A stretch of DNA of 64,000 nucleotides from sequence record OR532803.1; one strand, 5' to 3'. Every line of letters begins with the position of its first letter. The first letter of the stretch is position 1. Below are positions 19,914 through 28,006 of the stretch, in pieces. The stretch comes from Klebsiella phage RCIP0009. The notes under the pieces were generated by a model. The model was not told the origin of the DNA. It did no database searches and saw only the letters and a program-made list of their open reading frames with translations. Both the position numbers and the translations under genes were made by a program.

Positions 19914-20789
19914 ATGAAAATCAATTTGCATCGCTTCATTGTAGAATTTTCCAGCGACCGCGACATGGACTCTTACAACTATTACTCCCGTGAAATTGAA
20001 GATTGTTTTGCGGCTCATGTTGGATTCCGTCGCCACCATACCCCTAAAATGCGTCCTGACCACGATCCGAAGTATAGCCCTATTACATGGCAAGCCCCTA
20101 TCGATGGTTACGTTGAAGGGATCCGGATCATGACGTTTAACGCGATGTATGGAAACGCGTTGATCCATATCGCACGTGAGAAAAAGGCAGAATTCCCTAA
20201 CGGATGGAGTATTGATGAAGTGATTCAAAATCTTATGCAGTTACGACGTGAATACAAAGCGGGTATGTGTCTGCGTAATGAACAGTATCAGATGTATAAA
20301 ACGTATGCATATATCTCTAAGCACCTAATTAACTCCATGTTTTACATCGTTGGTAATCATGGTTCCGCTATAGATATCGGTTCTTATGAAATCGTGGCTT
20401 ATGCTCGCGAACAAGGAAAGGCCGCTGCACTGAAAATTATTGAATCTGGTGCTATCATTCTTAACCATCGCATTGATACTATTGCTTACTATGGTGATCA
20501 GGTTGAGGTTGAAGGCGTACACCATGAACGATTCAACAAAGCCGTATTTACTAAAAATGGTTATGCGTATGGTAATGACATTATAACTTCTGCTGTTCCT
20601 TTCGTTCGTCTAACTGTTGAAGGATTTGGAGAAAGGTTGCCTTATAAACCGTCAGAAGCTCAAATGTGTGCGACTGCTGAAAGAATAGCCAGAAAGCGGA
20701 AAATGTATACCGATGAATACCTGGCGTATGTCAACAAGACAAAAGAAGATGTAGATCGAGAAATTTCTTGCATGGATTTATCCATTTGA
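19914..20789 (+). CDS. Hypothetical protein (291 aa)
   Basis: long ORF with phage-like codon usage; no family recognised. Confidence 0.65.
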   Translation: MKINLHRFIVEFSSDRDMDSYNYYSREIEDCFAAHVGFRRHHTPKMRPDHDPKYSPITWQAPIDGYVEGIRIMTFNAMYGNALIHIAREKKAEFPNGWSIDEVIQNLMQLRREYKAGMCLRNEQYQMYKTYAYISKHLINSMFYIVGNHGSAIDIGSYEIVAYAREQGKAAALKIIESGAIILNHRIDTIAYYGDQVEVEGVHHERFNKAVFTKNGYAYGNDIITSAVPFVRLTVEGFGERLPYKPSEAQMCATAERIARKRKMYTDEYLAYVNKTKEDVDREISCMDLSI

Positions 20790-20821
20790 TATAATGTAAG
20801 CATCTTTTTAAGGGAGGATAC

Positions 20822-21139
20822 ATGAAAACGATACATTGCAGAAATGAAAACGTTGTTTATTATCACGGTTCGTGTACTGCTGCTGGTATTGAAAGCATGT
20901 TATTGCCTCCCTGTGATTCTGATACTCTGTCTGAAAAGGGCAGAAAGAAAAATTTAGACCGTGTTTTCTTTACCGCTGATATCGGGTTAGCTCGTATATA
21001 TGCTGGAAGGGCCGCGCGTTCTATAGGTGGGGATCCTGTTCTGTACAGGGTTGTGTGTCCGGTTGATGTTGTATGCATGAACGAAGACAAAGGCGCGAGC
21101 GTTTACCATGCAGCATGGGCGTTTTGTGAGGAATTATGA
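20822..21139 (+). CDS. Small Arr-like (rifampin ADP-ribosyltransferase family) protein, tentative
   Basis: YYHGS...(43 aa)...VFFTAD...(24 aa)...LYRVVCPVD matches the spacing of the Arr H-G-T / F-S-A / Y-I-V-E motifs as remembered; RBS GGGAGGA. Confidence 0.4.
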   Translation: MKTIHCRNENVVYYHGSCTAAGIESMLLPPCDSDTLSEKGRKKNLDRVFFTADIGLARIYAGRAARSIGGDPVLYRVVCPVDVVCMNEDKGASVYHAAWAFCEEL

Positions 21140-21312
21140 ATGATAAAGTGTTGGCGTATCTCGTTTTCTTGCTGGGATATCGCTTAGAAGTGATGGGCGC
21201 GTATTCATCAATGTATGGTGATTTAACGGCTATCTGGATGGTTGGGTTAGGGGTTGCTTTTACATTCCTTTCCTTTGCAATTGTTAATGAATCGGAAGAG
21301 GATATTGTATGA
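21136..21312 (+). CDS. Small hydrophobic membrane protein (58 aa), translationally coupled (ATGA). Not in the ORF track.
   Basis: two predicted TM stretches LAYLVFLLGY / IWMVGLGVAFTFLSFAIV; overlaps both neighbours' start and stop. Confidence 0.4.
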   Translation: MNDKVLAYLVFLLGYRLEVMGAYSSMYGDLTAIWMVGLGVAFTFLSFAIVNESEEDIV

Positions 21313-25408: not shown

Positions 25409-25435
25409 AATAAACCTAAAACGTGGAGTACGTTT

Positions 25436-26869
25436 ATGAACAACAAAACTTTCGAAGAACTGAACAGCATCATCACTTCCGTAGATTCCTATAAGGTTTC
25501 TCACTGGTCGCAATATCCAACTGGCTCCGAAGAGGCGCTGTTTTATATTGAATCTCGTGGTGGTAAATTTGATCAAGTAGTTACGGCTGGCTGTAACCGC
25601 CTTGCGCAAATCCTATCACGTCCGGTGACTATGGAAAACGTGGATTTTGCTAATCGGTTGTACAAAATGCACTTTGGGCGCGAAATCTTCAACTACAAAG
25701 GTTGGAAAGAAATTGCAGAACTGGGTTACATCCCTCTTGAATTCAGAGCGATTCCGGAAGGAACCCCAGTAGCGGTTAAAAATCCGGTTGCAACTTTCCA
25801 TGCTGGGAAAAATGCGCTGTGGTTAGCAGGACACGTAGAAACCCTAGCGATCAGGGGAGTATGGTTCCCTTCAACCGTAGCAACTCTATCCCGCGAATGT
25901 AAAAAAGTGTTGAAGAAATATCTCAAGAAAACCTCCGATCTAGAAGGTGAAGCATTTGATATGGTGTTACGTACCCGTTTGCATGACTTCGGCGCACGTG
26001 GAACCTCTTCTGCTGAATCCGCTGGTATTGGTGGCCTCGCGCACCTGTATAACTTCCTCGGTACTGATACCGTAGAAGCGCTGATTATGGCTATCTCTCT
26101 GTTTGAAGATTGTCAGAAAGCGTTTGATGATGGTGAAATGGCGGCTGGTATTTCAATTCCTGCTCGCGAACATTCCACTACCGTTTCTTACGGCAAAGAA
26201 AACGAAGACCTTGCGTACAAAAACAGTATTGAGATCTTCGGCGAAGGGATGTATGCATGTGTGTATGATTCCTGGGATTTTAAAGCGGCGGTTCGCCGTA
26301 TCGCAGAATATAAAGATTCGATTCTTTCTAAGGGCGGTACTCTGGTAGTTCGTCCGGATTCTGGTGATATGGTAGATAATATCATGTACGCTCTTGAAGA
26401 ACTGGGCCGTATCTTTGGCTATACAGTGAACTCAAAAGGGTATAAAGTACTACACCCAGCAGTAAGGATCATTCAAGGCGATGAAATTCATGGCCCTGAA
26501 ACAATCAATCGGGTGTTGAACTGGATGGAGTCTAACCGTTGGGCGTCTGAAAACATCGCGTTTGGTATGGGCGGCGGATTGCTTCAAGAAGTTACCCGCG
26601 ACACTCAAAAATATGCGATGAAAATGTGCGCAATCAAAATTAACGGTGTGTGGACTGGTGTGTATAAATGTCCAAAAGGCGCTGAGTGGAAAAAGAGTAA
26701 AAAAGGGTTGTTGATGACTATCACTGATGGTGTTAACTTTAAAACCATTGATACTCTGGAACAGAAAGTGCCGGAAGGCTGGAAAGATGCTATGATCACA
26801 TACTATGTCAACGGAAAGATTACTGCCCGTGACACTTTAGAGGAAATTAGGAACCGTGCCGGGATTTAG
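25436..26869 (+). CDS. nadV: Nicotinamide phosphoribosyltransferase (NAMPT/NadV)
   Basis: 477 aa, NAMPT-typical length; SYKVSHW, RPDSGD active-site motif, GMGGGLLQ; known family in T4-like vibrio/aeromonad phages. Confidence 0.9.
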   Translation: MNNKTFEELNSIITSVDSYKVSHWSQYPTGSEEALFYIESRGGKFDQVVTAGCNRLAQILSRPVTMENVDFANRLYKMHFGREIFNYKGWKEIAELGYIPLEFRAIPEGTPVAVKNPVATFHAGKNALWLAGHVETLAIRGVWFPSTVATLSRECKKVLKKYLKKTSDLEGEAFDMVLRTRLHDFGARGTSSAESAGIGGLAHLYNFLGTDTVEALIMAISLFEDCQKAFDDGEMAAGISIPAREHSTTVSYGKENEDLAYKNSIEIFGEGMYACVYDSWDFKAAVRRIAEYKDSILSKGGTLVVRPDSGDMVDNIMYALEELGRIFGYTVNSKGYKVLHPAVRIIQGDEIHGPETINRVLNWMESNRWASENIAFGMGGGLLQEVTRDTQKYAMKMCAIKINGVWTGVYKCPKGAEWKKSKKGLLMTITDGVNFKTIDTLEQKVPEGWKDAMITYYVNGKITARDTLEEIRNRAGI

Positions 26870-27158
26870 TATCCGCAAAAACGACAAAGGAACCGTGATT
26901 TTCTATGACAACATGCCCCTTGTAGCTCGCAAGGGGCTTTTTGCTAAAATCGCTGGGTATTCCTTTAAACTGGAAGAAGTCAACGACGAAACACTAAAAG
27001 AGATCGTAAGAATTGCCTTACAATTAAGAGGTAAGAAAGACGAACAAAGAGCTATTGACATGATCAATAAATTGGGTGAAACTCAATGCTTCATAGTGAA
27101 TCGTGGTTACAAGTACGATACCATTGCAAAATTTGAAAAAGGGCTTTGTGAATTATGA
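26856..27158 (+). CDS. Hypothetical protein (100 aa)
   Basis: overlaps the nadV 3' end; no family. Confidence 0.5.
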   Translation: MPGFSIRKNDKGTVIFYDNMPLVARKGLFAKIAGYSFKLEEVNDETLKEIVRIALQLRGKKDEQRAIDMINKLGETQCFIVNRGYKYDTIAKFEKGLCEL

Positions 27159-28006
27159 GTTATTATGGTGTGATCCCATACACAGGAAACAAGCAAAAGC
27201 TACTTCCTGAACTGTTCAAATTATTTCCAGACAGAAACAGCTATATGCGATTCATAGACTGTTTTTGTGGTGGGTTGAGTGTGTCACTAAACGTCCCTAA
27301 ACCCGTTCTAAGCAACGATTACGATCGGACGTTGATTGATATGTATAAACGCCTTCAAATGCTTCCTGACCTCTCTCCGGTGCGAGAATTGATTAAACAG
27401 TATGGTCTGGGTAAGAACGAGAAAGAAGCGTATCTCACATTTCGTGATGCATATAATAAGAACAAGGATCCGCTATGGCTCTATGTTCTGATCCTGCATT
27501 CGTTTAGTAATGTTAATCGAACCAACGATAAAGGCGATTTTAACGCCAATTTTGGTTGTAGAACGTTGAATGATTCTACCGTTAAACGGTTTGAACACTT
27601 CAAAAATAATGTTCGGGGAATTGAATTCTCTAGCGCATCGTTTAAGGATCTTGATATCTGTTTGAATGATTTTGTGTACTGCGATCCGCCGTACCTGATC
27701 ACTGATGCAGTTTATAACAAGTTCTGGAACGAAGAACGCGAGCATGAATTATATGATTTTCTCGATAATTTAAACTCTGATGGTATCAAGTTTGGTTTAT
27801 CAAACGTGACACATCATGCAGGAAAGCAAAATGATATCCTGATCGAGTGGATGCAAAAATATAATGTGCATAACCTCGATAAAAAGTATCTGTTAGGCCA
27901 GCATACTGATTCTTACGAACAAAACAAAACGCAAGAAGTCTACGTGTGCAACTATCAGAAACGCGACGTAAATACATACCCTGAAACACTGGATGACTTA
28001 ATGTAA
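27155..28006 (+). CDS. dam: Dam DNA N6-adenine methyltransferase (GATC)
   Basis: YTGNKQKLLPEL, FCGGLSVSLN (SAM motif), DPPY; collinear with T4 Dam. Confidence 0.92.
   Translation: MSYYGVIPYTGNKQKLLPELFKLFPDRNSYMRFIDCFCGGLSVSLNVPKPVLSNDYDRTLIDMYKRLQMLPDLSPVRELIKQYGLGKNEKEAYLTFRDAYNKNKDPLWLYVLILHSFSNVNRTNDKGDFNANFGCRTLNDSTVKRFEHFKNNVRGIEFSSASFKDLDICLNDFVYCDPPYLITDAVYNKFWNEEREHELYDFLDNLNSDGIKFGLSNVTHHAGKQNDILIEWMQKYNVHNLDKKYLLGQHTDSYEQNKTQEVYVCNYQKRDVNTYPETLDDLM

Follow-up and report, generated by a model that had tools for sequence, protein, structure and literature searches.

Does an 8-kb run of accessory genes with several NAD+-linked folds side by side work as one system? The question is raised by Klebsiella phage RCIP0009 (record OR532803.1), of which a stretch of 64,000 nucleotides, here called the window, was analysed. 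Positions 19914–28006 hold, among others, a nicotinamide phosphoribosyltransferase (NAMPT), a SLOG-domain protein, a small ADP-ribosyltransferase (mini-ART) and RNA ligase 2 (Rnl2). The initial annotation took this block to be one counter-defence island in which NAMPT, SLOG and mini-ART form a neighbourhood not described before. Our analysis favours another answer, at a probability of roughly 70%: the block consists of joined variable regions whose genes act as separate modules and do not make up one system. Its components are members of families already known and annotated. What is new here is the succession of rnlB and the SLOG gene, the only conserved linkage within the block.

The run of genes itself is real. 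Fourteen open reading frames (ORFs) on the + strand, most of them overlapping or tightly spaced, occupy the segment, and the only sizeable intergenic gaps are at 19800–19913 and 24612–24688. The 8.1-kb segment recurs with 98–99.8% identity over its full length in more than 100 deposited KP15-like genomes, which are phages of Klebsiella, Enterobacter and Raoultella (Slopekvirus, Straboviridae). It corresponds to KP15_201 to KP15_214, and the annotations of KP15 and phi1_146007 match the gene calls. Family searches on each ORF largely agree with the identities first guessed from the letters, while no function can be assigned to eight of the 14. The ORFs with an assignable family are the following.

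20822–21139, + strand: mini ADP-ribosyltransferase of the p0068-like family (H-Y-[EDQ] clade), 105 amino acids (aa)
21993–22517, + strand: Srd-like protein ('decoy of host sigma70' family) with an HNH/EndoVII-related domain, by PHROG and the KP15_206 annotation
22521–23540, + strand: RnlB, RNA ligase 2 (Pfam RNA_ligase 5e-19 and T4_Rnl2_C 7e-15)
23530–24111, + strand: stand-alone DprA/Smf-type SLOG domain, 193 aa, its start overlapping the rnlB stop by 11 nt
25436–26869, + strand: NadV-type nicotinamide phosphoribosyltransferase (Nampt), by Pfam, NCBIfam and PDB sequence matches
27155–28006, + strand: Dam, a D12-class N6-adenine DNA methyltransferase (Pfam MethyltransfD12 7.7e-35; DPPY motif)

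The reading as separate modules is carried by a synteny census, in which 62 mini-ART loci were taken with 10-kb flanks and every protein of the block was mapped on each. The full block is found in 10 of the 62, all of them in the KP15/RB43/Lw1 clade. At the 52 ART loci outside this clade, a SLOG gene lies within 10 kb in four, a Macro gene in three, a NAMPT-family gene in one and rnlB in one. A span of 20 kb takes up about 12% of a genome of 170 kb, which is the chance level if the gene is assumed to be in every genome. With 4/52 and 1/52, the co-location of ART with SLOG or NAMPT is thus at or below random placement. Among the matches listed, none of 70 SLOG loci outside the clade has NAMPT or ART within 5 kb, and de novo clustering of the ART neighbours gives no partner in more than 24 of the 62 loci.

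The positions of the genes in related phages tell the same story. A neighbourhood comparison had been set beforehand as the test that could refute a single island, and it finds the genes scattered. The ART is found in the gp41–gp61 interval in Mosigvirus, Dhakavirus and Acinetobacter phages and beside dmd in coliphages, the SLOG gene is usually placed after rnlB and next to gene 24, and NAMPT, together with its NadM partner, is upstream of gp49–nrdD. One contig has the ART near 18 kb and the SLOG gene near 112 kb, about 94 kb apart. Co-localisation of NAMPT, SLOG and mini-ART is not preserved across the divergent genomes compared.

Several observations weigh on the other side. Acinetobacter phage Acj61 (GU911519 23240-40937) carries a SLOG gene, a NARP1-like pair and a mini-ART within 7 kb, in the gp41–gp61 region. 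Its pair consists of a PRPP-synthetase-like gene and a 594-aa NAMPT-family gene (Adps + Namat architecture), and NAD-related accessory genes have accumulated independently at this locus. At one further locus (L017) ART, RnlB and SLOG lie within 3.2 kb, and a Macro gene is found about 3 kb from the ART in three Aeromonas loci. Three folds linked to NAD or ADP-ribose (ADPr) within 6 kb are suggestive in themselves, and NAD/ADPr domains co-occur in viral genomes above expectation (Aravind survey). A weak ART–SLOG–NAMPT linkage may also be present, as the loci are not phylogenetically independent and each list holds at most 80.

How did the genes come to be contiguous? Two relatives each hold one half of the arrangement. 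In Klebsiella phage JD18 the order is uvsW-inh-hoc-DUF2774-x-x-RnlB-SLOG, followed by gene 24 on the opposite strand; gene 24 and uvsW are the bounds of this T4-type variable region. The left half of the block (DUF2774-like g205, Srd, RnlB and SLOG) corresponds to this region, and the DUF2774 gene of JD18 sits in the same relative place as g205 (hoc...rnlB). The right half (NAMPT, Dam, nrdC, gp49 and nrdD) corresponds to the arrangement in Aeromonas phage Aes012, where NadM-RlaP-NAMPT-gp49-nrdD are found in this order in 8 kb, without ART or SLOG. From these two matches, the block is read as two ancestral variable regions joined by rearrangement in the KP15/RB43 lineage.

The segment would then be the KP15-type version of the T4-like 'hyperplastic' region of early and middle accessory genes. 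A genome rearrangement would have fused the stretch hoc...DUF2774...rnlB-SLOG, which abuts gene 24 in T4-types, to NAMPT...dam-nrdC-49-nrdD. The hyperplastic regions of T4, 24-rnlB-hoc-uvsW and nrdC-49-nrdD, have the same flanking core genes, the same kind of small early ORFs and homing-endonuclease insertions. The KP15 lineage differs in that the two regions are joined and that, unlike in T4, its block includes homologs of srd and dam together with NAMPT, SLOG and the mini-ART.

The GC content and skew of the block are the same as those of its flanks. A horizontal-transfer island defined by composition was considered and is ruled out by these values. Mobile endonuclease genes accumulate in this region, a hotspot of the kind typical of variable regions. 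ORFs of HNH-AP2-type homing endonucleases are seen between rnlB and SLOG in some Slopekvirus genomes (L157 4470-4960), and homing-endonuclease ORFs replace g201 upstream of the ART in some relatives (L011/L012).

The best surviving alternative, which we consider unlikely, is the integrated NAD+/ADPr counter-defence island of the initial annotation. Nampt would refill NAD+, SLOG would sense or destroy signals of the cyclic ADP-ribose (cADPR) type, and the mini-ART would spend NAD+ on disabling a host defence or a takeover target. Rnl2, Srd and Dam would add further anti-defence layers, and all would be co-expressed from two early/middle promoters. The ART and SLOG folds and the NAMPT are indeed borne out, the ORFs are packed and co-directional with promoter-like sites in both gaps, and Acj61 repeats SLOG, NAD reconstitution and ART in another variable region. 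The structural matches of the mini-ART model include an anti-CRISPR ART, AcrIF11, in third place. Against this, the clustering is limited to one clade and falls to chance or below elsewhere, and the joining of two ancestral regions accounts for the contiguity. In addition, the partner of Nampt in the NAD+ reconstitution pathway NARP2 is encoded 100 kb off, the Macro gene is distant too, the SLOG protein is of DprA type and coupled to rnlB instead of NAMPT, and RnlA and PseT, the known anticodon-nuclease countermeasure, are encoded elsewhere. On the favoured reading, that of separate modules in joined regions, a tempting over-reading is corrected: the side-by-side NAD-related folds are an accidental juxtaposition of known accessory genes.

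Among these modules, Nampt alone has an experimentally supported anti-defence role, established with the KVP40 genes and requiring a partner that is encoded elsewhere. The NAMPT (nadV) call is firm. The protein matches Pfam NAPRTase (7e-41) and NAMPT_N (3e-22), and scores 464 bits against NCBIfam PRK09198, above the cutoff of 405. Its best PDB sequence matches are bacterial and human NAMPTs (1e-104 to 1e-87), and the lowest-scoring NAMPT-named entries are at 1e-58 to 1e-48. By these matches, the Nampt of the window appears nearer to true NAMPTs than to the Namat of NARP1. No Adps (NARP1) is annotated in the KP15-type genome, of which all but about 40 kb was examined.

A candidate partner is a NadM-type adenylyltransferase-Nudix protein (352 aa, CTP_transf_like + NUDIX) at PP889462 125587-126645. 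PP889462 is a 98.9%-identical relative, and its NadM gene lies outside the equivalent of the window, about 100 kb from NAMPT. These distances were read from annotated genomes; the single-protein locus scan gave only three near-identical contigs. KP15-type phages thus encode both NARP2 enzymes, the activity of which we infer from homology. Nampt would convert nicotinamide and phosphoribosyl pyrophosphate (PRPP) to nicotinamide mononucleotide (NMN), and the distant NadM-Nudix would complete NARP2 and rebuild NAD+.

The NARP2 genes of Vibrio phage KVP40 (Nampt + Nmnat) restore NAD+ and defeat Thoeris and DSR2, and 94% of the phages with a KVP40-type Nampt also encode Nmnat (bioRxiv 10.1101/2024.02.11.579819). 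The KVP40 pair (NadV/NatV) and the pair described here share a NadV-type Nampt with NAMPT_N and phosphoribosyltransferase (PRTase) domains and a NadM-like adenylyltransferase-Nudix in the same phage type. They differ in that the KP15-type genes are about 100 kb apart with only Nampt inside the block. Aes012 keeps both genes in one variable region. From its arrangement, the position of NAMPT upstream of gp49–nrdD is taken as ancestral, and the KP15 lineage as having split the NARP2 pair. The proposed role of NAMPT in NAD+ rescue therefore holds insofar as the enzyme is a member of a proven counter-defence pathway, and fails insofar as that role was placed within the block. KP15-like phages serve Klebsiella phage therapy, so that knowing which phages carry a full NARP2 is of some practical value. 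In PP889462, the segment 123037-130761 has RlaP (an nrdC.11-like RNA-repair nucleotidyltransferase), NadM-Nudix and a Macro protein within 8 kb, near rI and tk.

Alternatively, Nampt and NadM could be metabolic housekeeping genes that raise NAD+ for phage nucleotide and redox metabolism and for the phage's own ART, whether a defence is present or not. NARP2 lifts NAD+ also in cells without a defence system (bioRxiv 10.1101/2024.02.11.579819), and NAMPT stands among nucleotide-metabolism genes (nrdC, nrdD, nrdG) both here and in Aes012. On the other hand, the expressed NARP2 genes abolish Thoeris and DSR2 defence in the same study. We regard housekeeping as the sole purpose as quite improbable; it is compatible with separate modules in joined regions and differs only in the selective pressure assumed.

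The SLOG gene does not adjoin NAMPT, as had been stated; three ORFs and 1.3 kb lie between them, and it overlaps rnlB instead. Its identification as a DprA/SLOG-like Rossmann protein is confirmed by a model with a predicted local distance difference test (pLDDT) score of 94.5 and by a match of the family profile to DprA at 4e-6. The 193-aa ORF has the Rossmannoid SLOG fold with Gly-rich nucleotide-binding loops. It does not reach the equivalog level of bacterial DprA (NCBIfam dprA 18.7 bits, cutoff 191), and its match to Pfam DNA_processg_A stays below threshold (21.4 vs 29.6) and covers residues 10–54 only.

With DprA/Smf, LOG, YpsA, ShosA and ThsA-SLOG the protein shares the GxR loop and the SGGAxGxD and GGT motifs. 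Unlike DprA, it is a single domain without the SAM and C-terminal domains. Unlike the LOG phosphoribohydrolases, it lacks the catalytic glutamate: its family has KGGTxxA in place of the LOG motif PGGxGTxxE and no conserved catalytic Glu. From the known SLOG members it is set apart by its coupling to RNA ligase 2, a context undescribed in the literature searched. The SLOG domains of viruses have been predicted to counter cADPR-type signals (Iyer, Burroughs, Anantharaman, Aravind survey), and the DprA/Smf-type SLOGs of phages have been suggested as additional single-stranded-DNA-binding proteins (same authors, PMC7824862).

The linkage was counted from both sides, in 80 RnlB loci and 80 SLOG loci among the matches listed, which are not phylogenetically independent. 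SLOG is found downstream of rnlB, always on the same strand, at 30 of the RnlB loci and 22 of the SLOG loci. The two genes are directly adjacent at 21 RnlB loci, with gaps of -22 to +280 nt. The stop and start codons overlap by 1–22 nt in 16 of the 22 SLOG-side pairs and in most of the 21 adjacent RnlB-side pairs. The pair persists where identity has fallen to 33% for SLOG and 36% for RnlB. Outside T4-like phages, no neighbour cluster of SLOG is found in more than 7 of 58 loci, and no link between Rnl2 and DprA/SLOG was found in the literature searched.

The identity of RNA ligase 2 is clear from its nucleotidyltransferase domain and its Rnl2-specific C-terminal domain, and this part of the annotation stands. 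The repair of anticodon-nuclease damage that had been ascribed to it does not. T4 is known to answer the anticodon nuclease PrrC with polynucleotide kinase and RNA ligase 1. KP15 encodes this pair, RnlA and PseT, elsewhere in its genome, and Rnl2 is therefore not the known counter to that defence. To our knowledge, the natural role of Rnl2 is still unknown.

The rnlB and SLOG genes would form an overlapping, probably translationally coupled pair, in which SLOG, judged from linkage and fold, most likely assists the nick-sealing ligase by binding nucleic acids or nucleotides. Tentatively, and with less than even confidence, we go further and propose a conserved, translationally coupled module of T4-like phages in which SLOG is the missing partner of Rnl2. 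It might, for example, recognise or prepare broken nucleic-acid ends, or gate the ligase by a nucleotide signal. If true, the module would be a first handle on the biological role of Rnl2. Three points speak against such a module: in ZPAH1 rnlB and SLOG are 3 kb apart, in some Slopekvirus genomes a homing endonuclease separates them, and the pairing may be inherited synteny, with shared ancestry explaining part of it.

The 'small Arr-like ADP-ribosyltransferase' of the initial annotation does have the ART fold, yet it belongs to the p0068-like family and not to Arr. The protein has no Pfam, NCBIfam or PDB sequence match. It matches ZZ1p0068, the namesake of the family, with 74% identity (E 1.4e-42). 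H15-G16, F49, Y60 and E103 are invariant in an alignment of 27 diverse homologs, and the invariant H15-G16, Y60 and E103 thus fit the pattern of an H-Y-E enzyme. In a structure model built from the family alignment (pLDDT 86), the features of the fold are present: a His in strand 1, the aromatic/Tyr position and an acidic residue in the last strand.

Between the sister clades, no protein of the block is better conserved than the mini-ART. Its identity between the KP15 and RB43/Lw1 clades is 92–94%, compared with 38–88% for its neighbours and 86–88% for NrdD. It still amounts to 65–70% out to Aeromonas, Vibrio and Acinetobacter phages, an unusually strong constraint for an accessory gene. The family is present in 609 phage records, whose hosts include Escherichia, Klebsiella, Acinetobacter, Aeromonas and Vibrio, and in several GenBank records the protein is already named 'ADP-ribosyl transferase' or 'rifampin ADP-ribosyl transferase'. 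Within the HY-[EDQ] clade, the p0068-like family is among the commonest of all viral ARTs, its pairing with Dmd in enterophages has been proposed to be toxin-antitoxin-like, and RNA has been speculated to be its target (Iyer, Burroughs, Anantharaman, Aravind 2022, PMC9503650). In the literature searched, no biochemical work on these ARTs was found. The mini-ART would be under very strong purifying selection, and its most likely activity, early in infection, is the mono-ADP-ribosylation of a conserved host macromolecule.

With the rest of the p0068-like family, the mini-ART of the window has in common its length of about 105 aa, the H...Y...E pattern and its place in the early-gene region of T4-like phages. 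It differs from coliphage p0068 ARTs in its neighbours: there Dmd follows, whereas here a clade-specific 58-aa hydrophobic ORF follows and g201 precedes. Arr and Tpt1/KptA share with it the small H-class ART core and the HG[ST] motif. In contrast to Arr, where the third catalytic residue is Asp, it has Glu, and there is no sequence match to the Arr-ms family. Compared with Tpt1/KptA, it has no sequence match and no N-terminal RNA-binding lobe, and 75 of the 179 Tpt1 residues align. The widespread and unusually conserved mini-ART is, together with the conserved rnlB–SLOG pair, which could help to explain Rnl2 in vivo, the lead that remains.

Very unlikely, finally, is an RNA-repair cluster, in which a Tpt1-like mini-ART would use NAD+ to remove or modify terminal phosphates, SLOG would act on the ends by binding or trimming, and Rnl2 would seal RNA cut by host ribonucleases: the ART does lie 1.3–2.1 kb upstream of rnlB–SLOG in the KP15 clade and in L017, adjoins the anti-RNase factor dmd in coliphages and has RNA as its speculated target (PMC9503650), but the Tpt1 lobe that it lacks holds most of the catalytic residues, the ART (gp41–gp61) and rnlB (gene 24 region) are far apart in most phages, and among the matches listed the RnlB loci beyond the KP15 clade are all without an ART within 4 kb.

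The remaining ORFs of the block are small or fast-evolving.

19914–20789, + strand: g201 (KP15_201), 291 aa, fast-evolving orphan (phrog_7439; homologs in 3 clusters)
21136–21312, + strand: g203, 58-aa hydrophobic ORF, its start overlapping the ART stop (ATGA)
21309–21635, + strand: g204, 108 aa (phrog_7467), no Pfam or NCBIfam match
21637–21993, + strand: g205, 118 aa, weak Pfam DUF2774 match (5e-5, below cutoff)
24105–24611, + strand: g209, 168 aa, fast-evolving (phrog_7671; 34–45% identity between sister clades)
24689–24949, + strand: g210, 86 aa (phrog_7372)
24959–25408, + strand: g211, 149 aa (phrog_7424), only sub-threshold Pfam/NCBIfam matches
26913–27158, + strand: g213, 81 aa (KP15-annotated start)

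Two of these flank the mini-ART. g201 precedes it both in the KP15 clade and in the Aeromonas phages 25/31/44RR. By eye, g201 has strings like the PolB motifs A, B and C and a PNG...R-K helix, with the catalytic Asp mostly lost, and one GenBank record labels it 'DNA polymerase'. Its comparison with KP15 gp43 by hhalign gives a probability of 1.9%, and its family profile has no PDB match. g203 is present only in the KP15/RB43 clade and is not Dmd-like. A Dmd-like ORF follows the mini-ART in only 10 of the 62 ART loci; an ART–Dmd toxin-antitoxin pair was considered for the window and is ruled out, the ORF after the ART being g203, which is unrelated to Dmd.

The Srd-like ORF matches phrog_4592 (2.6e-73), phrog_1400 (Srd, 1.8e-13) and the HNH phrog_3118 (3e-20). 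It belongs with T4 Srd and the 'decoy of sigma70' PHROGs, and what had been described as a degenerate HNH protein is thus an HNH/EndoVII-related member of the Srd family. The Dam call is equally sound, with DPPY readable in the translation. Srd-like, Dam and the eight orphan ORFs would represent independent accessory functions. g211 has an acidic N-terminus and a Cys-rich, zinc-ribbon-like C-terminus (CPVC...C...C). One GenBank record labels an ORF of the block, possibly g211, 'IS1595 family transposase'.

Three candidate transcription signals were noted.

19832–19861, + strand: sigma-70-like promoter candidate TTGACA-18-TATGGT, a consensus match only, in the divergent gap before the block
24619–24647, + strand: promoter-like site TTGACG-17-TATTCT in the second gap, the 'putative middle promoter' of the KP15 record
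26915–26937, + strand: strong terminator-like hairpin, a 9-bp stem (6 G-C pairs) followed by TTTTT

Early promoters had been claimed at 19833 and 24619. Hexamer pairs are present in both gaps; such matches show no excess across the region (18 vs 22.5 +/- 4.8 in shuffled sequence), and at 24619 the KP15 record has a putative middle rather than an early promoter. The hairpin lies 46 nt past the stop codon of NAMPT, in overlap with the start annotated for g213.

The location 'between uvsW and nrdC' is right for the downstream side, where nrdC, gp49 (endonuclease VII) and nrdD follow. On the 5' side lie gp24, uvsY, uvsW, inh, hoc, two NT5C-type nucleotidases and a Zeta-toxin-like P-loop protein. 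uvsW (13344–14843, minus strand) is 5 kb upstream, with the inh, hoc and nucleotidase genes intervening. The Zeta-toxin-like P-loop kinase (279 aa) and the two NT5C-type 5'-nucleotidase paralogs are divergent from the block, with coordinates 18446–19799 (minus strand) and 17895–18413. In one GenBank record the kinase is mislabelled 'portal protein'.

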